A DNA stretch of 64,000 nt. It comes from Candidatus Moraniibacteriota bacterium. Its GTDB lineage: Bacteria; Patescibacteriota; Minisyncoccia; Moranbacterales; UBA1568. The stretch's first letter is position 1, and every line of letters starts with the position of its first letter. The stretch spans positions 5,565 through 69,564 of the forward strand of contig JBATLQ010000045.1 of assembly GCA_049289395.1 (NCBI GenBank), given 5' to 3'. A program made the position numbers and the translations under genes. Below are positions 22,749-42,732 of this stretch, piece after piece. The notes beneath the pieces are model-generated. The model did no database searches. It had not been told where the DNA came from and saw only the letters and a list, made by a program, of their open reading frames with translations.

Positions 22749-23021
22749 CTACCGATCCTTGGCGGTATGCCACACCTGGAGAATTTCGATAGTATCTTCT
22801 TTGATACGATAGGAAACGAGGTAGTGTTTCTGTATGACCAATTCACGCATATTCTCTTTCGCCCCCGATCGTCCGAGATAAGGAAACCATCTCAGATTAT
22901 CCACCTGATCAAAAATTTCATGCACAAAAGAAATGGCGCGATCTTTGTTATCTCGCGCGATGTAGAGCGCGATACGATCCATATCATGAAGCCCCCGCTT
23001 CAACCATTTAATGCTTCGCAT
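22749..23021 (-). CDS. type II toxin, ParE/RelE family
   Basis: 90 aa; C-terminal YRIKEDTIEILQVWHTAKDR pattern typical of ParE/RelE; overlaps upstream antitoxin gene by 14 nt. Confidence 0.65.
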   Translation of the reverse strand: MRSIKWLKRGLHDMDRIALYIARDNKDRAISFVHEIFDQVDNLRWFPYLGRSGAKENMRELVIQKHYLVSYRIKEDTIEILQVWHTAKDR

Positions 23022-23238
23022 ATCCCCATTTTTTCATGATTGCCTCCACCTCTTTTTTCGAAGCGAATTTTCCGGCATCCGCATCCTTCATTGCTTGTTT
23101 CAAGTCTTTCAGTTGCGGAATGCGCCACGCCAAATATTCCTCCACCGCCACATGCGCAACCGAAGAAATAGACGATCCGGTCAATTCGGCGAATCGACCG
23201 ATTTTTTCCTTCAATTCATCGGACACCCGCAGTGTCAT
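23008..23238 (-). CDS. type II antitoxin (RHH/ParD-like)
   Basis: ~76 aa from MTLRVSDELKEKIGRFA; small, precedes and overlaps toxin gene. Confidence 0.55.
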   Translation of the reverse strand: MTLRVSDELKEKIGRFAELTGSSISSVAHVAVEEYLAWRIPQLKDLKQAMKDADAGKFASKKEVEAIMKKWGYAKH

Positions 23239-23409
23239 GGTATTCTGCTTCGTTCTCACACCCATACAAGAATGTATTACATATGATTACATTATAATCA
23301 TATCAGGAGATACTAAAGCGGTCAATATACTGTTCCCCTGTATGCGACCGTAACTTTCCGAAAATGCCTCCAAGGCGTATACTAGAGAAAATAAATCCAA
23401 AAAATTCCT

Positions 23410-25181: not shown

Positions 25182-25333
25182 GCAGTAAACAGGGAGCAAT
25201 GAGCACGAAACCAGAAATACAGCGGTCTCTCCGCTGTATTTTGTTTTGAGAAAAAACCTTTCTGCTCTATCCTATAAACATCCTCTTTCTCTTTTTTTTG
25301 TTCACTGTTCGCTGTTAATTGTTATCTGATTTT

Positions 25334-25828
25334 ATGCGTATCCTCGGTATCGATCCTGGCACGGCGACGGTAGGGTGGGCGGTCATTGATTTAACGGCTG
25401 GCAAAATTGGCATCGTCGATTTCGGTCATATCAGCACCTCACCCAAGACGCCCATGACGGAGCGACTCTTAGAGATTTCCAAGGATTTGGAAGAAATTAT
25501 CACGAAATATGAGCCCGAGGAGGCAGGAGTGGAAGAACTCTTCTTCGCGAAGAATGTGAAAACCGCCATGACGGTGAGCCAAGCCCGTGGCGCGATACTC
25601 TTGACTCTAGAGAGATTTTGTGTCAATATATTCGAGTACAAACCAAATGAAATAAAACTTTCCCTCACGGGCTACGGGAGGGCGGACAAGCCACAAATGC
25701 AGGAAATGGTGAAAGCGATACTCAAACTGAAATCCATACCGAAACCGGACGATGCCGCCGATGCCTGCGCCATCGCCATCTGCCATGCGAATAGTAGGAA
25801 AATGAAAACACTGCAGGCATCAAAATAA
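25334..25828 (+). CDS. ruvC: crossover junction endodeoxyribonuclease RuvC
   Basis: MRILGIDPGTATVGWAV N-terminus (RNase H-like fold with catalytic Asp), ~164 aa; downstream of yebC as in many bacteria. Confidence 0.85.
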   Translation: MRILGIDPGTATVGWAVIDLTAGKIGIVDFGHISTSPKTPMTERLLEISKDLEEIITKYEPEEAGVEELFFAKNVKTAMTVSQARGAILLTLERFCVNIFEYKPNEIKLSLTGYGRADKPQMQEMVKAILKLKSIPKPDDAADACAIAICHANSRKMKTLQASK

Positions 25829-25964: not shown

Positions 25965-26621
25965 ATGCCCATTCATCCTCTCATCGCCTTTTTCGTAGAA
26001 TCCGGCGTGCCACTCCAGACGGTGGCACTCCTTCTCTTCCTCCCCATTATCGCGACCCTCGTCGCTCTTTTCCGTCAAATTGTCGGCATCAAGGCATTCG
26101 GCATCTACACGCCATCCATCATCACTTTCGCGCTCCTCGCTTTCGATCCAAATGGCGTGAAGTATGGCATCGCTATTTTCATCGCGGTCATCGTGGTCGG
26201 CATGCTCTCGCGCTGGTTCCTCAAGCGATTTCGCCTCCTCTATCTCCCTCGTGTCGCCATCACGCTTTCCATCGTCTCCCTTTCTATTCTCGGCATCCTC
26301 GTCCTCGGTGGTACGCAGAACCGTACCGGACTCGCTTCCGTATCCATATTTCCCCTCCTCATCATGATCACGCTCGCGGAGAAATTCGTCGCGACGCAGA
26401 TTGAGAAGGGTACAAGGGTGGCTCTTATCCTCGCCATGGAAACACTCGTCATCTCTATCGTCGGGTATGCACTCCTCAGATGGAATGCGCTCCTCCAAAT
26501 CATCCTCGCCTTCCCCTGGCTCATCCTCCTCACCTTTATCGTCAATATCCTCCTCGGGAAATGGACCGGGCTTCGGCTTACGGAATACATTCGCTTCCGG
26601 AAAATTATCAAGCACCTATAA
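25965..26621 (+). CDS. 7-TM integral membrane protein accompanying ATP-grasp enzymes
   Basis: 218 aa, seven hydrophobic helices; immediately upstream of ATP-grasp genes. Confidence 0.55.
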   Translation: MPIHPLIAFFVESGVPLQTVALLLFLPIIATLVALFRQIVGIKAFGIYTPSIITFALLAFDPNGVKYGIAIFIAVIVVGMLSRWFLKRFRLLYLPRVAITLSIVSLSILGILVLGGTQNRTGLASVSIFPLLIMITLAEKFVATQIEKGTRVALILAMETLVISIVGYALLRWNALLQIILAFPWLILLTFIVNILLGKWTGLRLTEYIRFRKIIKHL

Positions 26622-26675
26622 GAAATCTTTCTCGTTCGATGCTCCATGTTGTATGTTTCATGTTGACTGATCCGT

Positions 26676-28112
26676 ATGTTTGAATTTTTCGCGAAAAGTA
26701 GGAAGCTCCTCGGCATGAACGCGCGCAATCTCGGGTATGTGCGCTCTTTCAACAGAAAGCGTGGCATGCGCATCGCTGATCACAAACTCCTCTGCAAACG
26801 CATTCTCGCGAAAAACAATCTGCCCGTATCGACGCTCATCGCGAAAATCCATACGACAGAGGAGCTCGAGACTTTCGATTGGAATGCTCTCCCAAATAGC
26901 TTTGTGCTGAAACCAAATCGCGGCTTCGGCGGTGAAGGGATCCTCGTCGTCTATGGCAAGAAACGATCCGATCCTGCCCGCAATGCTTCGCATAGCGATG
27001 CAGGCGGGGCATGGGTGAAGGCCGACGGCTCCATCGTCACCATCGATGATATCAAGACTCATATCCGCAACATTCTCGATGGTTCATTCTCCCTCTCCAA
27101 TACTCCCGATTCCGCGTTTTTCGAAGAGCGACTCAAACTTCTCAAGCTCTTCAAGCCCTACGCATTCAAAGGCATCCCCGATATCCGCGTGATTGTTTTC
27201 AATAAAATACCCATCATGGCGATGCTCCGTCTCCCAACGCGTGCCTCCGATGGCAAGGCGAATCTCCAACAAGGCGCTATCGGACTCGGCATCGATATGG
27301 CGACCGGCACCACGACGACCGCCATCCAGGGGAAGGGCTCCATCATCGAATACGCACCCGGGACGAGACTCCCGCTCTCCGGTATCAAGATCCCCTATTG
27401 GAAAAAAATCCTCACCATGTCCGTCCAAGCACAGGAAATTTCCGGTCTCGGTTTTCTCGGAGCGGATATCGCGATCGATCGCGACCTTGGCCCCGTCATC
27501 CTCGAGCTCAACGCGCGCCCCGGACTCTCCATACAACTCGCGAATCTCTCCGGGCTGAAGGAGCGCCTCGATCGCGTGAAGGGATTGAAAATAAAAACCG
27601 TGGAGAAGGGTATCCGTGTCGGCATGGATCTCTTCGGCGGTGAGATCGAGGAAGAACTGGAAGAAATTTCCGGCCGTCGCGTCATCGGATGTATCGAAAA
27701 GGTGAAGCTGATTGGAAAAGACGGAAAGGAAATCGAGGTCGAGGCAAAAATCGATACCGGTGCCGATTCAACTTCGATCGATACCGAACTCGCGAAAAAG
27801 CTTGGTTTCTCCGATGTACTAGAGTTTTTTGAAACTATCCCGGAACCTAAAACAGACAACCAGGATGATATACGAAAAATGTCTGACGCCTACGACATAA
27901 GATATAAAAATGCTCACCCAGACCTCCGGGCTATCGTCTTCGCTCGCTCCGCGAATGGACTCAGCATGCGCCCAAAAGTAGAAGTATCACTCATCATAGA
28001 TACCGTCGAGATTTCCGCTCGCACCACCATCATCGATCGATCACGCCTCGAATACCCCGTAATCATTGGAAGAAAAAATCTCTCTAAATTTCTTGTTGAT
28101 GTAAATAAATAA
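26676..28112 (+). CDS. ATP-grasp amidoligase (RimK-related) fused to C-terminal retropepsin-like (DUF785/RimK-associated protease-like) domain
   Basis: 478 aa; ATP-grasp C-terminal motif ILELNARPGLS; C-terminal region with AKIDTGADSTSID and LIIDTVEIS Asp-Thr-Gly-like motifs. Confidence 0.55.
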   Translation: MFEFFAKSRKLLGMNARNLGYVRSFNRKRGMRIADHKLLCKRILAKNNLPVSTLIAKIHTTEELETFDWNALPNSFVLKPNRGFGGEGILVVYGKKRSDPARNASHSDAGGAWVKADGSIVTIDDIKTHIRNILDGSFSLSNTPDSAFFEERLKLLKLFKPYAFKGIPDIRVIVFNKIPIMAMLRLPTRASDGKANLQQGAIGLGIDMATGTTTTAIQGKGSIIEYAPGTRLPLSGIKIPYWKKILTMSVQAQEISGLGFLGADIAIDRDLGPVILELNARPGLSIQLANLSGLKERLDRVKGLKIKTVEKGIRVGMDLFGGEIEEELEEISGRRVIGCIEKVKLIGKDGKEIEVEAKIDTGADSTSIDTELAKKLGFSDVLEFFETIPEPKTDNQDDIRKMSDAYDIRYKNAHPDLRAIVFARSANGLSMRPKVEVSLIIDTVEISARTTIIDRSRLEYPVIIGRKNLSKFLVDVNK

Positions 28113-28120
28113 AAAAACTT

Positions 28121-29062
28121 ATGACAAAAAATTCCCTCATTATCATCAGAGAGGCTGAACACATCGGCCTCAAGGTAGAAATTATTTCCGACAAAAAAAA
28201 CCTTTTTGTCATTCATGGAAAAAACAAGTCTCTCACTGTGTGTGAACTATTTTCCATAACACTCGATCCTGCTGGCGAAGCTTACCGACTCTCTAAAGAC
28301 AAGGTCCTGACCTACCTTCTTTGGGAGCGAGCCAATATACCATTTCCAAAGTATTATCACTTCAAGAATCACGCCGACTTTCAAGAGAAATGCCACAATA
28401 TTCACTTTGAATACCCGCTCATCCTCAAAGAAGGCGGTGGTTCAAAAAGCATTAATGTCCATATGGATATTCAATCGATACATCAACTAAAAAAATCAGC
28501 CGCCAGCTATACAAAGGAGTTTCTCGCTCAACAAATGATCATCGGGAAAGAATACCGGCTCCTCCTCCACCAAGGGAGCCTCCTTGGTGCCCTCCTTCTC
28601 ATTCATCCGCATATCATCGGGGATGGAGAGCATACCATACATGAGCTCATCGAGATGGCAAATCACAATAAAGAAAAGAAGCTTGTTTTGGATAAAAATT
28701 CACTTGCCATACTTCAAAACGATGGCCTCTCCCCAGAAAGTATTCCTCAAAAAAATAAAAAGATTTTTCTCCAAAAAAACTCCCGCCTTTCCCAAGGGGG
28801 GGAATCACATGACTGCACTGACATCGTGCACCCAGAAATACTACGCTTGGCCAAAAAAGCTATTGAAGCAACCAACCTCGGTCTCGGTGGGCTCGACCTC
28901 ATCTGTGATGACATAACCCTCCCCCCAGCAAATCAAAAATTCATGTTCCTTGAAGTAAATACCTACCCTGATCTCAGTATCCACTATGAGCCCACTCACG
29001 GCTCCCCCCAGCCAGTCGCCAAACTTATTCTTGAAAATATTTTCGATGCCAACGCACAATAA
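28121..29062 (+). CDS. ATP-grasp family ligase
   Basis: 313 aa; C-terminal FLEVNTYPDLSIHYEP ATP-grasp motif; AT-rich gene. Confidence 0.5.
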   Translation: MTKNSLIIIREAEHIGLKVEIISDKKNLFVIHGKNKSLTVCELFSITLDPAGEAYRLSKDKVLTYLLWERANIPFPKYYHFKNHADFQEKCHNIHFEYPLILKEGGGSKSINVHMDIQSIHQLKKSAASYTKEFLAQQMIIGKEYRLLLHQGSLLGALLLIHPHIIGDGEHTIHELIEMANHNKEKKLVLDKNSLAILQNDGLSPESIPQKNKKIFLQKNSRLSQGGESHDCTDIVHPEILRLAKKAIEATNLGLGGLDLICDDITLPPANQKFMFLEVNTYPDLSIHYEPTHGSPQPVAKLILENIFDANAQ

Positions 29063-29101
29063 AAGCACTCGGAACGATTGATTTTAACACACCTTGTCAC
29101 T

Positions 29102-29983
29102 ATGCCAAAAAAACTACACTTTCTTATCATAATGGGAAAAACAGGCCCAAATCATATCGACATAATTAATGCAATCACTGACGCTGGGCACATAAGTCAT
29201 ACATTTAGCATCAACGATGCTACCATCAAAATTATTCAGGGAAAAGAAGTTGTATTTTTCCAAGAATACCCGCTCTCATTTTTCGACATCATTATACCGC
29301 GCACCATACAAACAAACCTCAGTCTCGGAAGATTTATACTCTGCCAAGCTAGGGCAGAACAATTTGTTCTTGATGAATGCATCGCACATCGTGATACCTT
29401 TGGGAAAATATCCCAAGGTAAAGCGCTCCTCGATAAAAAAATAAATCACCCAAAAACTATTTATACCGCAAATGCCGATGCTCTTCCCCTTATAATAAAC
29501 GCACTTTCATTCCCTTGTGTTGCAAAACCAGTATCAGGTCGACAAGGGGCTGGCGTAACACTCGTAAGAGACCAGAACGAAGCAATTAAAATTATTAAGG
29601 AACACGCTATGGGCTATCTCTTCCAAGAATACCTCCCAATTCAATTCGACTATCGGATATTCGTAGTTGGGGGAAAAGCAATTGGGGGGATACAAAGACA
29701 TATCTCTAAAAATGACTTCCGCACCAATGCCTCTGTTGGATCCGAGGTCACAAACACAAAAATGACAGCCGCCCTGCGCTCCACAGCGATTCAGGCCACA
29801 GCTGTTTTTGGGTACGACATTGCAGGAGTAGACATAGCCATTGTCAATGGGAGGCATTATGTTTTTGAAGTAAACCGCTCTCCTCAATGGCAAGCATTCA
29901 AAAAAGCAACTGGGATAAATCCTGCCAAACATATTATCGAGTATGCTATTAAAAAACATCATAAAAAACATCGAGCGGCTTGA
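29102..29983 (+). CDS. RimK-like alpha-L-glutamate ligase (ATP-grasp)
   Basis: CVAKPVSGRQGAGV, DYRIFVVGGKAIGGIQR, IAGVDIAIV and FEVNRSPQWQ match RimK-type motifs. Confidence 0.65.
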   Translation: MPKKLHFLIIMGKTGPNHIDIINAITDAGHISHTFSINDATIKIIQGKEVVFFQEYPLSFFDIIIPRTIQTNLSLGRFILCQARAEQFVLDECIAHRDTFGKISQGKALLDKKINHPKTIYTANADALPLIINALSFPCVAKPVSGRQGAGVTLVRDQNEAIKIIKEHAMGYLFQEYLPIQFDYRIFVVGGKAIGGIQRHISKNDFRTNASVGSEVTNTKMTAALRSTAIQATAVFGYDIAGVDIAIVNGRHYVFEVNRSPQWQAFKKATGINPAKHIIEYAIKKHHKKHRAA

Positions 29984-30058
29984 AAGAATTGAAAAAACAA
30001 TCTTTTTCCTGTACCATAAGCATATTCCTGGGAAATTTTTCCTTTGAGAAAATGCTCT

Positions 30059-32614
30059 ATGCCGATCATACACTTCTTTCGCCCAAAGCGATCCGCGCTT
30101 AAGCCCCCGGCTGAGAAAAGCGCTGAGAAGCGCTCAAAAATGCGCCGTTTTTTTCGTTTTTCTCTGAAACTCAGCCTTTTCATTTTCATTCTTGGCGTAC
30201 TCGCGACTGTCGGCATTTTCGCCTATATCGCGAAGGATCTCCCGAGTCCGGGGAAGGTGAACAAGCGATTCATCGCCGAATCGACGAAAATCTACGATCG
30301 CACCGGTGAACATCTCCTCTATGAAGTTCATGGCGAGGAGAAACGCACGCTCATTCCCTTCTCCGAAATGCCCGAGAGTCTCCGCGCCGCCACGCTCACC
30401 CTCGAGGATCAGGACTTCTATTCACATCACGGCATCAAACTCACCTCTATCGTCCGCGCTATCGTGAAGGATGTCCTCCATCAGGGTGCCGCGCAGGGGG
30501 GATCCACTATCACCCAGCAATTCGTGAAGAATTCCCTCCTCACGAACGAAAAGACGCTCATCCGAAAAGTGAAGGAAGTCATCCTCTCCATCGAAGTCGA
30601 ACAAAAATTCTCCAAAGACGAAATACTCGAAATGTATCTCAATGAAATCCCCTATGGCTCGAATGCCTATGGCATCGAAGCGGCTACCCAGACTTATTTC
30701 GGGAAACACGCGAAGGAGCTCTCTCTCGATGAAGCCGCCATCCTCGCGTCCCTCCCCAAGGCACCGAGTACCTATTCCCCCTACGGCTCGCGAACCGAAC
30801 AACTGAAAATCCGCCAGGAAGTCGCCATCAAGAACATGGCGAGACTCGGATATATCACTGAGGATCAGGCGAAAGAAGCGATCGCCGTCGATGTCTTGAA
30901 AAAAATTCTGCCACAGAAAAACATCATCGCGGCACCTCATTTCGTGATGTTCGTGAAAGAATATCTCGATCAGAAGTATGGCGAGCTCTCGATCGAACAG
31001 AGTGGTCTCCGGGTGTACACCACGCTCGATTGGGACAAACAGATGGCGGCAGAACAAGCGGTTCGCGAGGGTGCGGAAAAGAATATGAAGTGGAAGGCGA
31101 GCAACGCCGCGCTCGTCGCCATGGATCCGAAGACCGGACAGATCCTCGCCATGGTCGGATCCAAGGATTATTTCGACAGTGCCATCGATGGACAGGTCAA
31201 TGTCACCATCCGCGAACGACAACCGGGGTCATCCATGAAGCCCTATATCTACCTCACCGCTTTCGAGAAAGGCTATTCCCCCGACACACTCCTCTACGAT
31301 ACGCCGACGCAATTCGATACCAATGAAGAAAAGAAATACGAACCGCAGAATTATGATGGCAAGTTTCGCGGTCCCATATCGATGAAGGAAGCCCTCCCGC
31401 AGTCGCTCAATATCCCCGCCGTAAAAACCCTCTACCTCGTCGGGGTGAATGATGCCGTCAAGACTGCGAAAAATCTCGGCATCACCACACTCAACTACCC
31501 CGATCGCTACGGACTCTCCCTCGTCCTCGGCGGTGGCGAAGTGAAGCTCATCGATCATGTGCACGCCTACGCATCGCTCGCCGCCGGAGGGGTGAAACGC
31601 CAGCAGAGCGCGCTCCTGCGGGTAGAAGATGCGCATGGGAACATCCTCGAAGAATATAAGAGTGACCCCGGAGAGCGCGTCATCGAAGAAAAGTATGTCG
31701 CCATCCTCGATCATGTCATGTCGACGAATGCTTACCGCGCGCCCGTCTTCGGAGAAAATAATCCACTCCGCTTCGACAATCGACAAGTCGCCGCGAAAAC
31801 CGGTACGACCAATGAGTTCCGTGACGCCTGGACAGTCGGGTTCGCACCATCGATCGCGGTCGGCGTGTGGGTCGGCAATAACAACAACGACCCGATGACT
31901 CCCGGAGCAGACGGCTCCATCGTCGCCGCTCCGATTTGGCGAGCCTTCATGGACAAGGCACTCGTGAACACCCCTATCGAGAATTTCCCCGAATACAAAC
32001 CGGAGGATACTGAGAACAAGGACGCCGTCGACAAACCCCTCATGAATGGAAAAGTGGATTCGAAAGAAAATGTGAAAGTGTGCAAGATAAAAAGTGACAA
32101 ATACTGCCTCGCGAACGATTACTGTCGAGATAAGGACATCGAGAAGAAAACATTCGTCTCGAGTCACGACATCCTCTCGTATGTCAATCGCGATGATCCC
32201 ACCGGAGCCATCCCGGACAAGCCGGACCGCGACTCGCAGTATAAAGGGTGGGAAAAGGGAGTGAAAGACTGGTACTCGGATCAGAAGAAAATCATTCTCG
32301 GCGATCCACCGAAGGACAGCTGTACCCAAGACGACTTCTCCCAATACAAACCTTCCGTCACCATCTCCACCTCTGGTGATGCTTCTTCGTCGAGCATCAC
32401 CCTCAGCGTCTCCTCCGACGCTCCGTATGGCGTCCGGAGTGTCTCCTATGAAGTGGATGGCAAGGATGCCGGATCATCCACGAGTAAGCCCTACAGCGTC
32501 TCGTACGATATTCCCGCTGACAAAAACAACTCCACCATCTCGGTAGAAGCAAAACTCGAGGATAGCAATGGAAACACCACAACCGCATCGAAAAATATCT
32601 CGGTTCACTACTAA
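30059..32614 (+). CDS. class A penicillin-binding protein (transglycosylase + transpeptidase) with C-terminal extension
   Basis: GT51 motif TLEDQDFYSHHGI; transpeptidase motifs SSMKP (SxxK), SLN (SxN), KTGTT (KTG); N-terminal TM anchor; listed 30044 start is TTG. Confidence 0.85.
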   Translation: MPIIHFFRPKRSALKPPAEKSAEKRSKMRRFFRFSLKLSLFIFILGVLATVGIFAYIAKDLPSPGKVNKRFIAESTKIYDRTGEHLLYEVHGEEKRTLIPFSEMPESLRAATLTLEDQDFYSHHGIKLTSIVRAIVKDVLHQGAAQGGSTITQQFVKNSLLTNEKTLIRKVKEVILSIEVEQKFSKDEILEMYLNEIPYGSNAYGIEAATQTYFGKHAKELSLDEAAILASLPKAPSTYSPYGSRTEQLKIRQEVAIKNMARLGYITEDQAKEAIAVDVLKKILPQKNIIAAPHFVMFVKEYLDQKYGELSIEQSGLRVYTTLDWDKQMAAEQAVREGAEKNMKWKASNAALVAMDPKTGQILAMVGSKDYFDSAIDGQVNVTIRERQPGSSMKPYIYLTAFEKGYSPDTLLYDTPTQFDTNEEKKYEPQNYDGKFRGPISMKEALPQSLNIPAVKTLYLVGVNDAVKTAKNLGITTLNYPDRYGLSLVLGGGEVKLIDHVHAYASLAAGGVKRQQSALLRVEDAHGNILEEYKSDPGERVIEEKYVAILDHVMSTNAYRAPVFGENNPLRFDNRQVAAKTGTTNEFRDAWTVGFAPSIAVGVWVGNNNNDPMTPGADGSIVAAPIWRAFMDKALVNTPIENFPEYKPEDTENKDAVDKPLMNGKVDSKENVKVCKIKSDKYCLANDYCRDKDIEKKTFVSSHDILSYVNRDDPTGAIPDKPDRDSQYKGWEKGVKDWYSDQKKIILGDPPKDSCTQDDFSQYKPSVTISTSGDASSSSITLSVSSDAPYGVRSVSYEVDGKDAGSSTSKPYSVSYDIPADKNNSTISVEAKLEDSNGNTTTASKNISVHY

Positions 32615-32714: not shown

Positions 32715-33599
32715 CTATCGCTTGAAGTCCGCACTGATTTTCCAAATACCTTTTTCACGGAATGCTGGGATCGTCTGATGCCTTGCCGCATTCGATATCC
32801 CTGACGCAGGCACATCATGCTTCTTCGCGTATTGAGCAAGAGTAATGATATCACCACCCTTCATATAGGTAATTCTTTTGTTCATCGATTCCATGAGAGC
32901 AAGCGTCACTACTCGCTCCATGGAGCTCGTATCACCGTCATTTCGATACTCTCCAAATGTTTTGTAATATTTCGATTTTTCCTTATCCCGAATAATAATC
33001 GATGGAAGTCCGAGTTGAAACATCTGATAATTCATGAGCACCCGACCAATGCGACCATTCCCATCGCAAAACGGATGGATTGTCTCGAAATCCAAATGGA
33101 ACTTCGCGATCTTATCCAAAAAATACGCGTCAATGTTTCCGGAGTATTCCAGAAGAAGCGAGCCGATCATATGTTCGACGCGCTCCGGTGCCGGTGCCAC
33201 ATGTGTCCCCACGCGGACATACTCTCCGGTCTTGCGAAATCGTCCCGCATACTCATCATTGATTCCGCCGAGGAGCATCTGATGGAGGAAGAGCATGAGC
33301 TCCTTATCAACACTCTTTTCCTGAGACTTGGTCCGGATATAATTCATAACCCGTGCCAAATTCTTCGCCTCGAAAATTTCACGGACACTGACATCCCGAG
33401 ACACCTCCATTTCCAAGAGAATCTTCTCCGTTTCCCGAAGCGTCAGCGTCGAATTCTCGATAGCATTCGAATTGTAGACACTCTCTGGAATTTCCGCTTC
33501 ATCCAAGAGGACAAGCAAGGACTCCTTCCCTTTGCGCAAGGTATCATATTCGTTCTTCAGTACCTGAAGACGCTTCCTGATATGTGCTGATGTAGCCAT
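32715..33599 (-). CDS. Fic-family protein (AMPylase/ Fic-DOC)
   Basis: 294 aa; canonical Fic motif HPFCDGNGRIGR. Confidence 0.8.
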   Translation of the reverse strand: MATSAHIRKRLQVLKNEYDTLRKGKESLLVLLDEAEIPESVYNSNAIENSTLTLRETEKILLEMEVSRDVSVREIFEAKNLARVMNYIRTKSQEKSVDKELMLFLHQMLLGGINDEYAGRFRKTGEYVRVGTHVAPAPERVEHMIGSLLLEYSGNIDAYFLDKIAKFHLDFETIHPFCDGNGRIGRVLMNYQMFQLGLPSIIIRDKEKSKYYKTFGEYRNDGDTSSMERVVTLALMESMNKRITYMKGGDIITLAQYAKKHDVPASGISNAARHQTIPAFREKGIWKISADFKR

Positions 33600-33604
33600 A
33601 TTTT

Positions 33605-33697
33605 TTCGTGAATTGTATGTATAAAGTATACATCATTCACGATTTATTGTCAATAATTCGTGAATTTTAGTGAAAAATAGACAATATTCACGATTTA
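33605..33697. promoter_or_regulatory. palindrome-rich operator/promoter region upstream of fic
   Basis: TTCGTGAAT (33605-33613, 33657-33665) paired with ATTCACGA (33643-33650, 33686-33693); inner palindromes TGTATA...TATACA and TTATTGTCAATAA. Confidence 0.45.
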
Positions 33698-33901
33698 TGG
33701 AACCAATTTCTCAGGTTTGTTTACAATCACCCATCTTTACCCCTCCAGAAAATTGTTTGGAAGCCTTGCCTCCAAACAGTCAAGATACATTTCCCCCCTT
33801 CTCTTCTTTGAGACGGAACTTCACGATCTTTCGGATCAGTGCGAGCGGGAGCTTCCCTCCGAGCGGGAATTGGAAATCGGATGGCACCCAACAACAGCTT
33901 T

Positions 33902-34261
33902 CTAGTTCTCCAAAGAATCCAAATACTCCTGTATCAATCCCCTGTCCTCATTTTCTTTCTCACCCTTGTAGTACAGCTCGATAAAATCTATCAGGACAAC
34001 TTCTCCGTTATCAATATTATGCGCGTAAATAATACGAAACAATGACTGCCCCTTCAGCGACGCGCAAGAAAGCCGCACCTTGAAAATAGTAATACATCCG
34101 TTATCCGAAATATGCAGCCTGTTCCAATGCTTGCTTCCATTGCCAAGTGGCAACACCCTCAAAACATCCTGGAGCTTGCTGAGATCGCTCTGCAATGATC
34201 TGTATTTCTTACTCAATCGCTTTAGTTCCTTCGAAAATTTCTGTGATTGCCGGAATTCCAT
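33902..34261 (-). CDS. type II toxin, RelE/ParE superfamily (HigB-like)
   Basis: ~120 aa from MEFRQSQKF; C-terminal RIIYAHNIDNGEVVLIDFIELYYKGEK pattern; 20 nt downstream of HTH-DUF4065 gene. Confidence 0.5.
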   Translation of the reverse strand: MEFRQSQKFSKELKRLSKKYRSLQSDLSKLQDVLRVLPLGNGSKHWNRLHISDNGCITIFKVRLSCASLKGQSLFRIIYAHNIDNGEVVLIDFIELYYKGEKENEDRGLIQEYLDSLEN

Positions 34262-34280
34262 ATGTCTGTTCGGTGCAGTA

Positions 34281-34997
34281 TTACAATTCATTATACTGTC
34301 GTACAGACAATTTCTCCGGGCGATAGAAAACATGATCGTACTCGATATTCTTCCCATCCTCTGCGGCAAACCACGGCGTATCCTCATGCGAAAGTACCGA
34401 GAGCTCCGCAGCACTCTTCTCTCCATATCGCGCCAGCACACTATCGATCATCGTCATTTCCTGAGCACTCAGACTGCTCAAGTCTGCATGGCGATGTGGC
34501 AGAAATTTCCTCTGCTCATAAGTAAAGTACGCACTCTTCACTTCTTCCAATTCTCCACTTTTCTTCATCTCCTCCACGACACTCACGAATTCCCTCGGCG
34601 TCGGACCATGATGATTCTTGATATAGGTCAGTCCCATGAGTTGATCCTCGTACTTCTCATAGTAATCAAAGTCGATGAAATAGAGGAGCTTATAGAGCAC
34701 AGTCATACCGACATTCGGCTTCCCTGCCGTCTTTTCCAAGACATACAGAAAAACCTGCTTGAATTTCTCAAGTTTCTTCTGCGGAATACTGACACGCATA
34801 TCCCCCTTCGGAGATACATGATCCCTCACGATACCGAAAATCTCTTGAATCTTCCATTCTTCCACCTTGGTCAATTTCCGCTCATTATTTTCAACCTTGG
34901 CCAAAGTCGGACGGGAAATATCCAAACGCTTCGCAAGCTCTCCCTGCGACATGCCATATTCTTCCCGCAATTTTCGTACATCAATTTTCTGGGACAT
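34281..34997 (-). CDS. antitoxin-like HTH (XRE) + DUF4065 (Panacea/SocA-like) domain protein
   Basis: N-terminal HTH MSQGELAKRLDISRPTLAKVENNER; DUF4065-like LYKLLYFIDFDYYEKYEDQLMGLTYIKNHHGP. Confidence 0.55.
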   Translation of the reverse strand: MSQKIDVRKLREEYGMSQGELAKRLDISRPTLAKVENNERKLTKVEEWKIQEIFGIVRDHVSPKGDMRVSIPQKKLEKFKQVFLYVLEKTAGKPNVGMTVLYKLLYFIDFDYYEKYEDQLMGLTYIKNHHGPTPREFVSVVEEMKKSGELEEVKSAYFTYEQRKFLPHRHADLSSLSAQEMTMIDSVLARYGEKSAAELSVLSHEDTPWFAAEDGKNIEYDHVFYRPEKLSVRQYNEL

Positions 34998-35188
34998 AAT
35001 ACTTTTTTTAGTACCTTAATAATACCACCCTTTCTATCACTCTGCAAAGAATTTGTCAATATATAGTAATAATTTACACAATTACTTTACAAAATAAACC
35101 TAATAATATACAATGATGCTGTCGAATGAGGGGGAACCCTCTCAACGGTCGGGTTCGGCTAATAAACACAATAATCCAAACAAACGGT

Positions 35189-35377
35189 ATGGCAATGTAT
35201 CGCCTCAAAAAAGATGCCAATAGACAATATTACTGGATTTTGCAATCTAGCGAAAATCGTAAGATTGTCGCTATGAGTAGCGAATCATACGATTCCAAGC
35301 AGGGAGCTCTCAACTCCATCAGCTGGACAAAAGCAAACGCAGACAAAGCGGGATTCGAAGATAATACTCAGCTTTAA
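35189..35377 (+). CDS. YegP/DUF1508-family small protein
   Basis: MAMYRLKKDANRQYYWILQSSENRKIVAMSSESYDSKQGALNSI matches UPF0339 repeat. Confidence 0.6.
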   Translation: MAMYRLKKDANRQYYWILQSSENRKIVAMSSESYDSKQGALNSISWTKANADKAGFEDNTQL

Positions 35378-35412
35378 ATTCGCTTCAAAGAGAAAAATGA
35401 AAATAAAAATCT

Positions 35413-35452
35413 AAAAAGAGGGCGTGTATTGAGACACGACCTCTTTTTTACT
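35413..35452 (+). terminator. intrinsic terminator
   Basis: AGAGGGCGTGT-attgag-ACACGACCTCT followed by TTTTTT. Confidence 0.55.
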
Positions 35453-35610
35453 TCCCTACCCCCACACTAAAGGCTTCTTGAAGAATGGATTGCTCGAGGC
35501 GGTCGAGCACGCCGGAGCAGAGGTATTCCTCATTCGCTTCTCCTTATGATATTCAGACATACGTTTCACTTACGAGTTACATATTTTGGTATGTAACTAC
35601 AAAAAGGAAC

Positions 35611-36021
35611 TCAATCACTCTTCCGATCTCCTATGACTTGTATATCTGTGACACGGATATTCTCCAGACACTTCGAGTCACCATAGTACTCGCAATCATC
35701 AGGCTCTTTCTCTCCTGTTATTTTAAATACACCGTTTTCATTTTCCCTCACATATTTTACATAATCATCAATCCTTTTTTCATCATCCATCTTTTCAATC
35801 ATTGCAAAGAACCATGGATGATCCTCAAACTCATCTAGTACCCTTCCTTGTTCGATATCATAGTAAGAGAATCGCACATCCCCCGATGTTGAAACTCTTG
35901 AAAGAACGCCATATCTTTCTACAAAAGAACTCCTCCCTGCATTATGTATATTCACCCACAAAATAGAAGCCGCAATAGCAACAAGAAGGAATATTGAAAT
36001 ATAGAGTGAATTTTTTTTCAT
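35611..36021 (-). CDS. hypothetical secreted/membrane-anchored protein
   Basis: signal-peptide-like MKKNSLYISIFLLVAIAASILW; last gene of minus-strand operon. Confidence 0.4.
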   Translation of the reverse strand: MKKNSLYISIFLLVAIAASILWVNIHNAGRSSFVERYGVLSRVSTSGDVRFSYYDIEQGRVLDEFEDHPWFFAMIEKMDDEKRIDDYVKYVRENENGVFKITGEKEPDDCEYYGDSKCLENIRVTDIQVIGDRKSD

Positions 36022-36025
36022 GATA

Positions 36026-36784
36026 TTATTCCATTTTGGATAAAACTTTAATTTCATTCGCCATCCTTATCCATTCTGCATTACTTATTCCATGTGCCAT
36101 TGGATGAGGTATTACAAAATAATTGATGCCTTCCTTTTTACAATAATGAAATCCCTCCGACTTCTTAAATTGACACTTCGCTATTTCAATCCAATGAGGA
36201 AGGTACATAAATGAACAGAAAATTACAGTGGTTGGTCGATGCTTGCTGATATATTTTTGATACAACTTAATCCTCATTGGCATTACCTCCTGAAAATACA
36301 CCCCTCGTGTCATCAAATAATCAATTTTAAAATTAAAATAAACCCAATCCAGCTCGCGTATTGAGCTCGATGGTAATGGCATTAGATCAAGAATACAATG
36401 ATTGCTATCTCGTCGACCAAATCTCGTTTTCTGATATTCTCTCACAATTTCAGTAGTCACAGATTGCTCCTCAAAGGCAAGCAACATGGTGATCAGCTTA
36501 CTCCAAGTTCTTTGAATAGGAGGTCGTTCCCCTAAAAAATATCTTATGTGATCTGGGACATCCGTCATGTCATCACAAATATCAACAACCAAACTATCCT
36601 TTGTTGCTTTGAAGCGAGGCTTCAGATCTTCTAATTCGCCAGCAAACCCCTCTTCCATACACACAAACCAAATATTTGAGTCAATATTTCCATAACCCAA
36701 AAAATTATTGATCCTATTTTCTATAAGTTCTTTCGAAATCATTGCTTTTTTGAAGAAATATTTTTCAATTCCACTTATGAACAC
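36026..36784 (-). CDS. hypothetical protein with uracil-DNA-glycosylase-fold-like motifs (divergent)
   Basis: GYGNIDSNIWFVCMEEGF resembles UDG family-4 motif GEGxpxArlMfVGEAPG; NHCILDLMPLP resembles NvVKCRPP; C-terminal VIPHPMAHGISN resembles HPSxLLRN; by-eye only. Confidence 0.3.
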   Translation of the reverse strand: MFISGIEKYFFKKAMISKELIENRINNFLGYGNIDSNIWFVCMEEGFAGELEDLKPRFKATKDSLVVDICDDMTDVPDHIRYFLGERPPIQRTWSKLITMLLAFEEQSVTTEIVREYQKTRFGRRDSNHCILDLMPLPSSSIRELDWVYFNFKIDYLMTRGVYFQEVMPMRIKLYQKYISKHRPTTVIFCSFMYLPHWIEIAKCQFKKSEGFHYCKKEGINYFVIPHPMAHGISNAEWIRMANEIKVLSKME

Positions 36785-36895
36785 ACGGATTCCGTGTTCG
36801 CCTCCCCTTGTAGTATTCGGACATAGTGGTTAGTGATAAAAAATGGTATCTAGCCTCTCTTCTATTTTTGGATTGTTGAACATAATTCTTCTTAT

Positions 36896-38887
36896 TTATC
36901 CTTTTGAGGTGATAGCCTCCTTCTTGAGACTTAGAATCCTATTCACAACCTTTTCGAGAGACGCACTGCTTTCCCCTGCTGCTTTTGCGCTAGTTATAAT
37001 ATCAGTAACTATATTCGGATTCTTTATTGCGTGTTTCTTCTTTGTTACTCCATACTTTTTCTGACATTCCACAAGAATCCTTTCAAATTCAACAGTGCCG
37101 ATTTCCTCACAAAGAGTGCTTTCAAGTTTGTCTTTAAAGCACGAAAATTTATCTTCAATATATGCTGGCCATTCCTCCTCAATACTACCGACCAATCTGA
37201 GCAATTTTTTATTCTCATCAGGATTCGCCTTTCCATCTGCTTTTCCACACAACTCACACGCTCCAGATGTCTCGCCTTTTCCATAATCGCCATCCCAAAC
37301 TATATATGTCGGTATTCCTAATTTTGTGAAAATTATGTACGGTCTATCTATATTCGTTTTTCCTCCACAAGGAATTATAGAAAATCCATCCCCCTCCAAT
37401 TCGTGCCCCATTGCTTTTGCGGTACCCAATATAGCCGCCCTATCATCTTCACCCTCAACAAGAATATTCGCATCAGCAAAAAATCCCTCATTCATCCAAG
37501 GCGTCATTATGGCGTGAAGCCTGGGAATCAAACTGGCTCCAGTATACTGTTGTCCGCGCTTCCCGTCAGCTTCCCAGCTAGCTAAAGCAACTTCATCTAG
37601 TGTCGTATGAATAACCTTTGTTATTTTCGGTTTCTCCACCTCGTTTACTAACTTACGAAAAAGCCTTATCTGGTCAATCCTATCGATGCCCACAAAATGA
37701 GGAGAGTGAGTACAATATATAATTTGAGTGTTATCGGCTACTCCTGGCATTTTTCCGTCTGCTAACTGTCTTAGTATTTTTGCCAAATGTCTCTGTCTAT
37801 TCGGATGCTGATAAATTTCTGGCTCCTCGATTGCCAAAATAAGCGTGGGTAAATCCGTTTCAGTTACTCCTTCATCGGTCTTTGCACTCTTAACTTGTTC
37901 CATTGCCAAATGCTGAAGTAGGGTCAAAATAAATGCTCGCTGTAGCCCGTGCCCGGTTTTTTCAACTGACGACTCAAATCCGTCTTCAATCAGCTTTATA
38001 TCAGCTTGTGGCATAGGCATAGTAATGCCGGCAAGTGGAAGCCAATTCAATCCAACTTGAGCATTTGGAACATAAATCTTCATCGTTTCAGTCATCTGTT
38101 TTTCTAGAACCTTCAATTCAGTAAGCTTTTCAGGATCCATTATTTCCTTATACTTTTCCTCGGTCTTATTTTTCAATTTAACATACTCCTCCTTTCTCAC
38201 AAGAACACTTCTTACAACCAAATCCATCAAGCGAGAAAACGTAGAGCTTTTTCCATCTTCAATATCAATACCCGCATTACGAACAGCAGGTATAAAGAGA
38301 AACTGCGAAAACTTTCCCAGATAACCCTTCGCCACGCTCTTAAAACCGAAAAATTGTCCGTCATCTCTCATACGAACACATTGTGTACGATTCTCATTCT
38401 CCCATTTATCCAACTCAATTACAGTTGTCTGATTCTTCCAATCCGGCAATCTCTGATATTTTTCATTTTTTTTTAATTCAACATATTTCTCTTTCTTGTC
38501 TCTCGCTGAAGAAGCATTCCTCACTGAAGCGAAATCTGGATTCTGCAAACTTGCACCGTGATACTTAAAACTCGGTTTACCATCAGTCCAATCAATTACA
38601 AGCTCAATAGTTAATTTGTCGTCCTGTAAATAAGAACCAAAAAGACGTTTTGCTTCTTCTGAAAGCTTTTTATATGTAACGGCTACGACTATAGGCGATG
38701 ATGTATCCTTATTATAATAATCATCCTGTTTAATGCTTTGAGAAAAAGCATAAAATATCTCAAGCGCCTTCAGGAAAGTCGACTTTCCTGTCCCATTTGC
38801 CCCAACCAATGCCGTCAGATCCTCCAAATAAACTTCTTCATCCAATAGCGATCTATAATTTTTAATTAAAACAGATTCAATCAACAT
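36896..38887 (-). CDS. OLD-family ATP-dependent nuclease (ABC-type ATPase + C-terminal Toprim)
   Basis: 663 aa; Walker A LVGANGTGKST, Walker B LILAIEEPEIYQHP, H-loop IIYCTHSPHF; C-terminal Toprim motifs ILVEGEDD and IVWDGDYGKGE. Confidence 0.7.
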   Translation of the reverse strand: MLIESVLIKNYRSLLDEEVYLEDLTALVGANGTGKSTFLKALEIFYAFSQSIKQDDYYNKDTSSPIVVAVTYKKLSEEAKRLFGSYLQDDKLTIELVIDWTDGKPSFKYHGASLQNPDFASVRNASSARDKKEKYVELKKNEKYQRLPDWKNQTTVIELDKWENENRTQCVRMRDDGQFFGFKSVAKGYLGKFSQFLFIPAVRNAGIDIEDGKSSTFSRLMDLVVRSVLVRKEEYVKLKNKTEEKYKEIMDPEKLTELKVLEKQMTETMKIYVPNAQVGLNWLPLAGITMPMPQADIKLIEDGFESSVEKTGHGLQRAFILTLLQHLAMEQVKSAKTDEGVTETDLPTLILAIEEPEIYQHPNRQRHLAKILRQLADGKMPGVADNTQIIYCTHSPHFVGIDRIDQIRLFRKLVNEVEKPKITKVIHTTLDEVALASWEADGKRGQQYTGASLIPRLHAIMTPWMNEGFFADANILVEGEDDRAAILGTAKAMGHELEGDGFSIIPCGGKTNIDRPYIIFTKLGIPTYIVWDGDYGKGETSGACELCGKADGKANPDENKKLLRLVGSIEEEWPAYIEDKFSCFKDKLESTLCEEIGTVEFERILVECQKKYGVTKKKHAIKNPNIVTDIITSAKAAGESSASLEKVVNRILSLKKEAITSKG

Positions 38888-38946
38888 ACATGAAAAATCA
38901 AAAAGGGATAAGTCTATTTGCTATATAAATTAAATCAATTAGTTTT

Positions 38947-39168
38947 TTAAAATTTGGATTGGTATCTTGGTTTATATTTGTTAATATAAGCATTCAAACC
39001 ATTATGCTCGCACGCTAATCTTTTCATATTTTCAATATGATTCGATCCTGCACTCATGTATGTATAGATATAAACTGATCCATCATGAAATTGGACTTTG
39101 ATATAGTCATTACCAATTTCAAAAGCATCTACATTTGAATCACCATCTCTATCATTATATGGTTGCAT
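38947..39168 (-). CDS. KTSC-domain small protein
   Basis: 73 aa; IKVQFHDGSVYIYTYMSAG matches KTSC pattern. Confidence 0.4.
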   Translation of the reverse strand: MQPYNDRDGDSNVDAFEIGNDYIKVQFHDGSVYIYTYMSAGSNHIENMKRLACEHNGLNAYINKYKPRYQSKF

Positions 39169-39182
39169 ATAATTTCTATTTA

Positions 39183-39911
39183 TTACGAAATGAATTTAGT
39201 GGTCGCTTCAACAAGCTTAACAAAGCATTGTTTTATATCAGTCCAATCATTACTATTTATCTCCACTTTGTCGCCATCATTATAATTTTTAATATTAGCA
39301 CTAAATACCCTTGTCGCACTTACAAATTTCTTATCTATAATACCTCCTTTATGCACCAACACATGCCTAAGTTCCAAATAAAAACATATCTTTTTCTCAA
39401 TCTCATCTTCCAAGGAAATATTTTTTGATAAATATTTTTCAAAATTTCTTTTTATTGCCTGAAAATCCTGAAAATTAGGCTTTACTTTTTCAAGAACAAG
39501 CCTGCCAAATCCACCCCGATAGGTAAGTTTATTTTTAACTAGTTCAGCCAAAGTAATTTTTATCCCTTCTAACTCTTTATTTTCCAGATTGATTCCATTG
39601 AAACCATTCAAAGCATTTTCAAAATACTTCTTCAGAGTCGCCTCTAAACTTGAAACTGCAAGGATACACATTTGCGAGTATATAACTTTAAAATTGTTTT
39701 CAATTGATCTATTGTTAATATTTTCCAGTCCGCTCTTCGCATTATCCAAAGCTATTTTCACAGTTGTTTGTATTCCAGAAGTATTAATCGCTACAGTCAA
39801 GGCTTGAACTGCCATATCTTTAATCAAACTTGGTGTCCGTTCAAGTTTATCGATATCAGCAAGTTCTTTTTTAAAATTCTTGAGGTAATCAGTCGTTGGC
39901 AATCTTGACAT
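39183..39911 (-). CDS. hypothetical protein with HEPN-like R-x4-H motif
   Basis: 242 aa, mostly helical; ELRHVLVHKGG fits HEPN Rx4-6H signature; first gene of operon. Confidence 0.35.
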   Translation of the reverse strand: MSRLPTTDYLKNFKKELADIDKLERTPSLIKDMAVQALTVAINTSGIQTTVKIALDNAKSGLENINNRSIENNFKVIYSQMCILAVSSLEATLKKYFENALNGFNGINLENKELEGIKITLAELVKNKLTYRGGFGRLVLEKVKPNFQDFQAIKRNFEKYLSKNISLEDEIEKKICFYLELRHVLVHKGGIIDKKFVSATRVFSANIKNYNDGDKVEINSNDWTDIKQCFVKLVEATTKFIS

Positions 39912-39963
39912 ATTTTTTTATACAAACATCCATTATAAAAATCCTTTTTAAACTCCTTTCTTA

Positions 39964-39994
39964 TGAAAACAAACACCCCGGAAGTCCGGGGTGA
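39964..39994 (-). terminator. intrinsic terminator (minus strand) separating DpnI-like operon from OLD operon
   Basis: perfect 9-bp stem CACCCCGGA-AGT-TCCGGGGTG; on minus strand followed by UUUGUUUUC. Confidence 0.5.
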
Positions 39995-40140
39995 TGGAAT
40001 AATCTTGCGAATATGGCTCTTTCCTTTCTTCTTTTTCTATTTAGGATGGGTTTTATTTTTTGTTAGTCCTAGCATACCACAACATGTGAAAAAATACAAG
40101 TGTCAAATCTTTTGAAAAATAAACAAATTTTCATACATAA

Positions 40141-40356
40141 TTATGAACCTGTCCAATCCTCTCTGCACTGTGCGCACCGTTCATTGCCAGTATGATCAAA
40201 ACAGTCAGTAAATTTGTTCGGCTCATATCTTTGCTCATCTTCATTCCAAAAAAACTCGTCATCAATGAGTGTCTCGACAAGCTTTCTTTCTGCTCCGCAA
40301 TGCTGGCAAGCATGCCTAGGAAAATTTTTTGTTTGTACATCCATATTCCCGATCAT
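40141..40356 (-). CDS. small zinc-ribbon protein (71 aa)
   Basis: CQHCG...CAQC Cys pairs; 15 nt downstream of DpnI-like gene. Confidence 0.35.
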   Translation of the reverse strand: MIGNMDVQTKNFPRHACQHCGAERKLVETLIDDEFFWNEDEQRYEPNKFTDCFDHTGNERCAQCREDWTGS

Positions 40357-40371
40357 TGATCGAAAACAAAT

Positions 40372-41139: not shown

Positions 41140-41235
41140 AATTGATGATCAATAATCTCCACTGAAAACTCATTTCATAAATGAAATGGTGTCACTATGA
41201 CAAACAATCCTATTTGTCCAAGAACCAATCCATAA

Positions 41236-41694: not shown

Positions 41695-41937
41695 GATCTG
41701 ATTAGATCATACAAAAGCACCCAGATCAAGATCGCCACCAGAAAACTATTCCCCATAATAAAAATTCCCCCATTCTCCCACCCCAGTCGGAATAGCACAA
41801 GTTCCGACGGGAGAAACAAAAAAATCCCTTCTCGGTGGGAATTTCATCCTATTTTCTCTCCCCAGTGACCTTACATGTGGTGTGCCCCAGTTACATTCCG
41901 AATGATGTAACGGGGCAGGCGGGGTAAACCACCCTAT

Positions 41938-42474: not shown

Positions 42475-42697
42475 ACTATATTTGTTATTTCTTCCAATCC
42501 CGAATTACTACCCCACCGCGGACGCGGGTGACCACTACTTTTTGCTTCTCTCTCCATCCAAGCTCGCGGACGAGCTCAATCGGGAGCGTCAGCCCAATAG
42601 ACTTTCCACCGAGTTTGGTAAGTTTCCGAACGCTTTTATCCGTTGCTTGTTTTGGCATAATATTTTCTTTAGTTTATCGCCTCATTTTCAGTCCCCC

Positions 42698-42726: not shown

Positions 42727-42732
42727 CTAGTT

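Follow-up and report, generated by a model that had tools for sequence, protein, structure and literature searches.

What is made, trimmed or modified by a run of genes in which one membrane protein stands beside three ATP-grasp ligases, one of them fused to an aspartic peptidase, is the question raised by positions 25965-29983 (+ strand) of a Candidatus Moraniibacteriota (Patescibacteria) genome. The DNA analysed is a stretch of 64,000 nt, called the window in what follows, and all coordinates are positions in it. A first-pass annotation, made from the letters alone, had placed four co-directional genes here, and all four open reading frames (ORFs), named A to D, are present at these coordinates. 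Its domain calls are borne out for each of them, the profile searches that it had proposed against ATP-grasp subfamilies, PF05618 and 7TM_transglut having all given matches. The answer favored here, with a probability of about 0.5, is that genes A and B are the core of a system that is related to RloB/RloC/RloA and present across Patescibacteria, that is, a membrane-docked builder and trimmer of acidic peptide chains with a lineage-specific product. By comparison of related loci, A and B are a conserved core, and C and D one of many interchangeable cassettes.

The RloABC operon has been described in Pseudomonas aeruginosa and other Gammaproteobacteria, where its role concerns hypo-osmotic tolerance, biofilm formation and antibiotic tolerance; mutations in P. 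aeruginosa rloB and rloC suppress the loss of the RloA proteases, RloA cleaves poly-glutamate (polyGlu), and 96% of RloB sequence hits come from Proteobacteria (Lormand et al., mBio 2025, PMC12239564). Gene B of the window (26676-28112, + strand, 478 amino acids (aa)) joins, according to its profile matches, an ATPgrasp_ST ligase to a retropepsin with a DTGA motif. The ligase domain (aa 1-320, 26676-27635, + strand) matches ATPgrasp_ST over aa 8-303 (4.6e-65) and, over the same residues, TIGR02291 (4.9e-82), where its 275.5 bits fall short of the curated cut-off of 314.2. With RloC of Legionella and Aeromonas it shares 39% identity, and on rimK_fam, the cut-off of which is 143.4, it reaches 42.5 bits. 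Judged by these scores, it clearly belongs to the TIGR02291/RloC clade, as a putative RloC-type ATP-grasp amino-acid ligase and not as an equivalog. Its ExN motif (ELNARPG) is invariant among homologues. Among solved structures, it comes closest in fold to ArgX/LysX, PsnB, Ddl and RimK, and of these neighbors ArgX/LysX, PsnB and RimK act on protein or peptide carboxylates.

Gene A (25965-26621, + strand, 218 aa) encodes a membrane protein of the seven-transmembrane (7TM) family 7TM_transglut (Pfam, 2.8e-28). On the NCBIfam RloB model, which has 508 positions, it covers only 307-507 and scores 81 bits against a cut-off of 900; it keeps the 7TM part of RloB and lacks the N-terminal transmembrane helix and the transglutaminase domain. 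The AlphaFold2 model of gene A has seven transmembrane helices and a C-terminal helix (predicted local distance difference test (pLDDT) 77); this model and that of gene B were both built on shallow alignments (68-92% identity). The positive-inside rule predicts an N-terminus out, C-terminus in topology. The conserved charged residues are R37, R83, E139, R204, E207 and R210, with the motifs RQxxGIK and GLRxxExxRF, the latter being the conserved basic helix, cytoplasmic in the predicted topology, in which the protein ends. Invariant residues common to gene A and the 7TM domain of RloB are R37, G41, E139 and GLRxxExxRF. Since the conserved charged residues and motifs all lie on the predicted cytoplasmic face, they fit the docking of a cytoplasmic partner. 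From these matches, gene A is an RloB-type 7TM domain and not a member of a transporter family. In a relative of the window (L090:6311-6970), gene calling splits this otherwise invariant partner into two ORFs (109 and 103 aa), each of which matches 7TM_transglut; the split may reflect a frameshift, a sequencing error or a pseudogene.

The tie between the two proteins is strict. In every one of the 78 related loci in which the sequence before B is available (78/78), gene A immediately precedes B on the same strand, with A proteins 26-91% and B proteins 37-83% identical. When plasmid records were searched with the ligase domain, typical rloA-rloB-rloC operons of Legionella adelaidensis and Aeromonas caviae were recovered (39% identity). 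On plasmid CP007061 of Halobacterium sp. DL1 (L086:3164-4918), a single ORF of 584 aa contains both 7TM_transglut (2.8e-24) and ATPgrasp_ST (1.6e-59) and, by this domain content, can be read as an archaeal Rosetta-stone for the RloB/RloC pair. The haloarchaeal fusion, the strict adjacency and the Pseudomonas genetics suggest together that the 7TM domain and the ligase function as one unit. The fusion ORF is unannotated in its record, lies beside transposase genes and has no retropepsin domain nearby.

The second half of gene B is the protease domain (aa 339-478, 27690-28112, + strand), a putative retropepsin-like aspartic peptidase of the RimB/RloA family. Residues 336-477 match PF05618 (Zn_protease/RimB-like, formerly DUF785; 1e-7) and RloA3 (3.5e-9), and the domain aligns with PDB 9g58 (9.4e-4); on the RloA1-3 models it obtains 24-37 bits against cut-offs of 210-280. 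The DTGA motif occupies aa 360-363 (DTG at 27753-27761), D360 and G362 are invariant and T361 is kept in 75/76 gene B homologues, so that by motif the domain is predicted to be catalytically intact. Most homologues also retain three basic residues, K358, R432 and R455, and in the 9g58 alignment K358, R432/P433 and D454/R455 match conserved K, RP and DR positions of the solved homologue. In RloA, the residues K46, R114 and R137 bind polyGlu and are required for activity (PMC12239564). K358, R432 and R455 appear to be equivalent to these three by motif position, P. aeruginosa RloA itself being outside the alignment. The protease should be cytoplasmic and not secreted, because it is fused to a cytoplasmic ligase, and an N-terminal signal peptide is impossible for it, because it occupies aa 339-478 of the ligase polypeptide.

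Between the two domains lies the segment LFGGEIEEELEEISGRRVIG (aa 319-338, 27630-27689, + strand), a near-invariant acidic motif. In the form LFGGEIEEELEEISG(K/R)(K/R)VIG, this linker is found in ~68/76 homologues, down to 40% overall identity, and canonical RloC proteins end exactly where it begins. The constraint acts on the protein, because synonymous sites vary freely and the amino acids are fixed; on the same ground, an RNA or Shine-Dalgarno element for internal initiation was rejected as an explanation. AlphaFold2 places a helix at 323-332, with pLDDT <50. The linker may be a site at which a Glu-directed protease processes its own chain, an acidic primer built into the enzyme, or a helix for docking. 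A test of covariation between linker and protease residues detected none; it supports neither a primer nor docking, and neither supports nor excludes a pseudo-substrate or self-cleavage site for the fused protease. Six lineages without the acidic linker retain K358, R432 and R455, and three linker-bearing lineages have lost R455.

The cassette of the window consists of two further ligase genes. Gene C (28121-29062, + strand, 313 aa) has its best match in the cyanophycin synthetase (CphA) model TIGR02068 (4.7e-52), at model positions 164-474 of 862, which correspond to the G domain, and scores 177 bits there against a cut-off of 850. It also matches the ATP-grasp parts of N-acetylglutaminylglutamine synthetase (Ngg; 1.6e-29, 103 against a cut-off of 569) and of GshAB; only 30 homologues were found in 5.8 billion clusters. 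Gene D (29078-29983, + strand) is similar to RimK-family alpha-L-glutamate ligases (RimK Pfam 2.3e-31; TIGR00768 9.2e-40, 136.7 bits, just below the cut-off of 143.4) and gives 88 bits on the RimK equivalog PRK10446, where the cut-off is 331. Its true start is probably the ATG at 29102, giving 293 aa, because the closest homologue (L084, 80%) starts at an equivalent MPKK. The intergenic gaps A-B, B-C and C-D are 54, 8 and 15-39 bp. A promoter and terminator scan of 25.2-32.8 kb gave the same counts as shuffled sequence and is uninformative. No second copy of any component A-D is present in the window, and none of the four genes matches a PADLOC anti-phage defense model at E<=1e-3. The outcomes that would have spoken against the first-pass annotation, ligases of other kinds such as Ddl or carboxylases and an unrelated transporter, were not encountered; what was found are RloC-like, CphA G-domain-like and RimK/LysX-like ligases and an RloB-type 7TM protein. 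As far as these matches tell, the ligases of genes B-D belong to clades that extend peptide C-termini.

The core is widespread. More than 7,000 proteins match gene B at E<=1e-5, the best 120 of these matches being 438-510 aa long and 67-100% identical; the match at 100% is a protein from a Candidatus Moraniibacteriota metagenome-assembled genome (MAG). The 80 species-representative loci compared (L001-L080) all come from Patescibacteria, including Moranbacteria, Woesebacteria, Dojkabacteria, Portnoybacteria and Paceibacterota. The order YebC-RuvC-A-B is kept in most loci, and YebC-RuvC-A-B-[gap]-PBP1A in Moranbacteria and many others; in close relatives, dciA-dnaN-dnaA come after PBP1A. In the window, the conserved left anchor by synteny is ruvC (25319-25828, + strand), which is context only and outside the system, and the right anchor of the cassette is PBP1A (30044-32614, + strand), a class A penicillin-binding protein (PBP) with Transgly and Transpeptidase domains in its orthologues. 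Many MAGs with the locus bear the title ‘uncultured Bdellovibrionales’, ‘uncultured Gammaproteobacteria’ or ‘Woesearchaeota archaeon’. Such automatic labels look unreliable, because gene order and protein identities match Moranbacteria or other Patescibacteria.

Between B and PBP1A, 49 loci with both genes on one strand have a gap of 1.2-5.9 kb. Downstream genes were typed in the 71 loci with enough DNA past B: an ATP-grasp gene follows B directly and on the same strand in 62/71 (median gap ~12 bp, usually -17 to +56 bp), 66 have at least one cassette ligase and 39 have two or three. At least six ligase subfamilies are represented and are combined differently from one cassette to the next; at >=55% identity, the 123 cassette ligases sort into 75 clusters. 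They are accompanied now and then by genes for Mur-ligase-like, GNAT, MATCAP-type carboxypeptidase, YdjC, glycosyltransferase and methyltransferase proteins. In some cassettes a CphA-G-like gene stands with a Mur-ligase-like gene, which recalls the G and M domains of CphA, and in others a ligase stands with a GNAT gene, which recalls Ngg.

Exchange of the cassette is visible among close relatives. In L001, L083, L087 and L088, the proteins RuvC and A, the B ligase domain and PBP1A are 81-92% identical to those of the window, but the C-type gene is 41-43% identical or absent and a different ligase stands at the D position. L084 shares gene C (81-82%) and gene D (79-80%) with the window, and although the flanks of L001 and L083 are as close as those of L084, their gene C is 41-43% identical; in the more distant L090 (flanks 60-78%), it is 59% identical. 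At the nucleotide level, homology between the window and L001/L083 stops at 28131-28133 and resumes at 29989-30134. For the 23 loci with a CphA-G-like gene, the pairwise identity of this gene follows that of the B ligase domain with a Spearman coefficient of 0.25, against 0.82 for the two domains of B. The AT-richness of the last two genes, already noticed by eye, is real: the guanine-cytosine (GC) content is 0.43 in gene C and 0.41 in gene D, and the GC content of third codon positions (GC3) is 0.465 and 0.354 as compared with ~0.6-0.7 in the flanks (gene A 0.69, B ligase domain 0.66, PBP1A 0.66). It is a general property of cassettes, because cassette GC3 is below core GC3 in 59/68 loci (nominal Wilcoxon p 4e-9, the loci being non-independent).

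The retropepsin part of gene B has a similarly low GC3 (0.46), and the alignments show that the variable block begins inside the protease domain, right after DTGA. For example, L010 and L076 are ~95% identical through IDTGA, after which identity falls sharply to ~40%, and the window and L002 cease to be homologous at 27805, just past DTGA. Where the ligase domains of two genomes are >=85% identical, the median identity of their retropepsin domains is 51% (range 42-94%). In pairs with at least 75% ligase-domain identity, a similar protease goes with a shared cassette ligase (odds ratio 4.4, nominal p 1.7e-6), an association that may reflect matched specificity or merely physical linkage. A check by eye of whether residues 364-365 track the cassette type is confounded by phylogeny, and no claim is attached to them.

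Several recurrent cassette members were observed in other loci. MATCAP/DUF1704-type metallocarboxypeptidases occur inside ligase cassettes at L060:9321-10472, at L024:12375-13694 and in L004 (8.5e-62 and 4.6e-27). MATCAP/DUF1704 carboxypeptidases are homologues of the tubulin detyrosinating enzyme, and by analogy a cassette ligase with a MATCAP enzyme would form an add-and-remove pair for C-terminal residues that parallels the logic of tubulin tyrosine ligase and MATCAP. A gene of ~590-600 aa with a RimK-type ATP-grasp and a C-terminal DUF3541 recurs in L001, L083, L089 and L042, and a stand-alone DUF3541-like protein is found in L030 and L018. A conserved protein of ~260 aa without Pfam match is present in some cassettes (L029, L032, L036, L078, L087 and L088; 260-268 aa), the 266-aa genes of L087 and L088 being placed in this group by size only; where its neighbors were typed, it stands with glycosyltransferases, and in three of four cases with an ATP-grasp protein of ~500 aa.

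These observations can be assembled into a mechanism. The ligase domain of B would dock on the conserved cytoplasmic face of the 7TM protein A and, using ATP, would add acidic amino acids, most likely Glu, singly to a C-terminal carboxylate; this Glu-by-Glu ligation is modeled on RimK, LysX and the G domain of CphA. The fused protease, acting as a dimer with a basic substrate groove, would cut the growing acidic chain, thereby setting its length or releasing oligomers, and would drive ligase turnover as RimB does for RimK. Cassette ligases would append further residues, C in the manner of the CphA G domain or Ngg and D in that of RimK, and the peptide would therefore differ between lineages. 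Finally, export or anchoring by the 7TM protein would tie the process to the membrane or envelope. The sequences themselves establish to which families the proteins belong, that A and B are coupled, that the catalytic motifs are intact and that the block downstream is a mosaic. The reading with the best support is this membrane-docked peptide builder and trimmer, a relative of Rlo operating as RimK/RimB do, in which the protease pocket and the accessory ligases constitute an exchangeable specificity block; the substrates are presumably Glu or other acidic residues, the protease presumably releases the chain, and the process is presumably linked to the envelope, with a surface structure as its possible target. 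The general idea of the first-pass annotation, ligases and a trimming peptidase with a 7TM partner, holds in this scheme, whereas its four genes do not form a fixed unit, A and B being the core and C and D replaceable.

Several points weigh against the builder-and-trimmer scheme. No RloC-type ligase, these included, has a demonstrated product, acceptor or activity. The transglutaminase domain that defines RloB is absent from gene A, and the periplasmic-cleavage picture of the Pseudomonas Rlo system is not transferable, because the protease is here fused to a cytoplasmic ligase. The presumed Glu specificity derives solely from the conserved basic residues. The link between protease and cassette could be due to physical linkage alone, and the genome pairs behind it are non-independent. 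Moreover, the core pair is found without any cassette ligase in some loci (e.g. L050, L064, L071 and L073), and C and D are thus not required for core function.

Other explanations give the same genes a different task. The ribosomal target put forward in the first-pass annotation corresponds to Glu-tailing and trimming of S6, the RimK substrate with a C-terminal Glu-Glu, or of another cytoplasmic protein, by a RimK/RimB-type pair to which the 7TM protein would be an incidental neighbor or a regulator. A protease held in the cytoplasm like RimB by its fusion to a cytoplasmic ligase, a RimK-family gene D and the existence of active RimB-RimK hybrids are all in keeping with it. It has nevertheless little likelihood, since gene B scores 275 bits on the RloC-type model against 42.5 on rimK_fam (cut-off 143.4) and D remains far under the RimK equivalog cut-off (88 bits against 331), the 7TM gene is coupled to B in 78/78 loci and fused to the ligase in a haloarchaeon, and a hypervariable block of ligases and protease fits poorly with a conserved ribosomal target. 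The search for acidic-tailed substrates such as RpsF that had been proposed alongside gave nothing: rpsF was not found in the window or in any examined locus, and no ORF of the window has an acidic C-terminal tail. It is also rather improbable that C and D have no functional relation to A and B and that the gap between B and PBP1A is simply an integration hot spot collecting ATP-grasp genes. The varying cassette content, the GC3 below that of the core, the genomes without a cassette ligase and the unrelated low-GC defense island just downstream of PBP1A in the window would agree with such a hot spot. An indifferent site of insertion does not explain why an ATP-grasp gene is inserted in 62/71 loci, always on the strand of B and usually at -17 to +56 bp, why the variable block includes part of gene B itself, or why protease type is associated with cassette type.

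Two further explanations keep the ligases and protease in one pathway and change its product. The ligases may modify peptidoglycan precursors or an envelope polymer, by adding acidic residues or stem-peptide side chains, in a lineage-specific wall chemistry beside PBP1A. The position of the cassette directly upstream of a class A PBP gene in 49 same-strand loci, the Mur-ligase-like, GNAT, glycosyltransferase and YdjC genes of cassettes elsewhere, and the cell-shape, hypo-osmotic and cell-wall-antibiotic phenotypes of Pseudomonas rlo mutants make this conceivable. Other lineages, however, have ribosomal protein genes or tyrS downstream, so that the linkage to PBP1A may be plain synteny; no peptidoglycan side-chain ligase family is matched, archaeal Ddl and pseudomurein models giving only 12-22 bits; and K358, R432 and R455, which align with the residues by which RloA binds polyGlu, make long acidic chains a more fitting substrate than short stem peptides. 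Modification of peptidoglycan is, on balance, unlikely. The product may instead be a free cytoplasmic peptide or storage polymer, an osmolyte akin to N-acetylglutaminylglutamine amide (NAGGN) or a cyanophycin-like chain, which the protease would recycle and for which the 7TM protein would be a release valve. The matches of C to the ATP-grasp of cyanophycin synthetase and of Ngg, the cassettes elsewhere that combine CphA-G-like with Mur-ligase-like genes or a ligase with GNAT, and the tie of the Rlo system to osmotic tolerance point in this direction. As the window has neither a Mur-ligase-like nor a GNAT gene, gene C lacks the N and M domains of CphA, and storage and osmolyte pathways are not usually hypervariable among close relatives, the chances of a free polymer appear slim.

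A more far-reaching version of the membrane-docked builder and trimmer is offered tentatively and is, as a whole, somewhat unlikely. The locus would then encode a compact, membrane-coupled Patescibacterial non-ribosomal peptide polymerase with a specificity block (protease pocket and one to three ligases) that recombination shuffles between the conserved anchors, making a strain-specific envelope or surface peptide polymer in the manner of O-antigen and capsule loci. Its diversity would be driven by episymbiotic host recognition and by phage pressure, and the linker would serve as built-in primer or self-processing site.

Comparison with known systems indicates what is shared and what is particular to the Patescibacterial locus. 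The gene-neighborhood logic is the same as that of the predicted amidoligase systems, combining 7TM, inactive transglutaminase, ATP-grasp and peptidase components, reportedly described in 2009 by Iyer, Abhiman, Burroughs and Aravind in Mol Biosyst, a study that is also said to be the origin of the Pfam families ATPgrasp_ST and 7TM_transglut. With RloABC, its closest characterized relative and one that the first-pass annotation had not named, the locus shares the 7TM_transglut domain of RloB, an ATP-grasp of the TIGR02291 type (39% identical to RloC, though below the model cut-off), a PF05618 retropepsin with DTG, tight gene linkage, and basic residues at positions that appear to match those with which RloA binds polyGlu. 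It differs in that RloB carries a periplasmic inactive transglutaminase domain absent from gene A, in that RloA is separate and secreted with a signal peptide whereas the gene B protease is fused to the ligase C-terminus, and in having the near-invariant acidic linker and one to three extra ligases in a hypervariable cassette. In the RimK system, RimB binds RimK and stimulates the synthesis of free poly-alpha-Glu, and an active RimB-RimK hybrid exists in which RimB (residues 1-163) is N-terminal to RimK (Little et al., JBC 2025, PMC11957791). A cytoplasmic ATP-grasp ligase, a polyGlu-cutting retropepsin-like endopeptidase, their natural fusion and a RimK-family gene (D) are common features. 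The protease is, however, N-terminal in RimBK and C-terminal in gene B, where the ligase is of the RloC and not of the RimK type, and because of this opposite domain order and different ligase clade the Patescibacterial fusion looks independent. Unlike the Patescibacterial locus, RimK systems have neither a 7TM partner nor a variable cassette. As for CphA1 and Ngg, both contain an ATP-grasp module that attaches an amino acid to the alpha-carboxylate of a peptide or of an amino acid. Gene C aligns with these modules, but it is only 313 aa long and has no N, M or GNAT domain.

None of the protein families involved is new, and the descriptions of the Rlo and RimBK systems date from 2025. The literature search did not find a description of an Rlo-type system in Patescibacteria, nor of the transglutaminase-less ligase-linker-protease architecture, the invariant acidic linker or the hypervariable block of protease pocket and ligases. 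The Patescibacterial version narrows the job of Rlo systems: they can do without the transglutaminase domain, a single cytoplasmic polypeptide can serve as both ligase and protease, a 7TM domain and a ligase can be joined in one protein, as the haloarchaeal fusion shows, and the protease pocket and the accessory ligases vary together. Taken together, these features suggest a peptide product of changeable composition. The module is probably important to Patescibacteria, because it is widely retained in very small genomes, always in the same place near oriC. Hypervariability in an envelope-related locus would be relevant to the interactions of episymbionts with their hosts and phages, and the 75 clusters among the 123 small ligases constitute a pool of candidate peptide-bond-forming enzymes.

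Elsewhere in the window, a low-GC stretch of ~11 kb (32715-43565, GC3 0.28-0.55) separates PBP1A from dnaN/dnaA (44034-46914, - strand); close relatives lack this stretch and have dciA-dnaN-dnaA directly after PBP1A. It contains, as read by sequence alone, a Fic-like ORF (32715-33599, - strand), together with an OLD-family AAA_15+TOPRIM nuclease (36896-38887), a DpnI-like restriction enzyme (40372-41139) and a DUF3800 protein (42756-43565), and is probably a defense island next to the replication origin. On the other side of the locus, two small overlapping ORFs of 90 and 85 aa (22749-23265, - strand) resemble by eye a toxin of the ParE/RelE type with its antitoxin. They are flanked by an HD-domain gene and a gene for a bPH_2 membrane protein and have a GC3 of ~0.5, below that of neighboring core genes.

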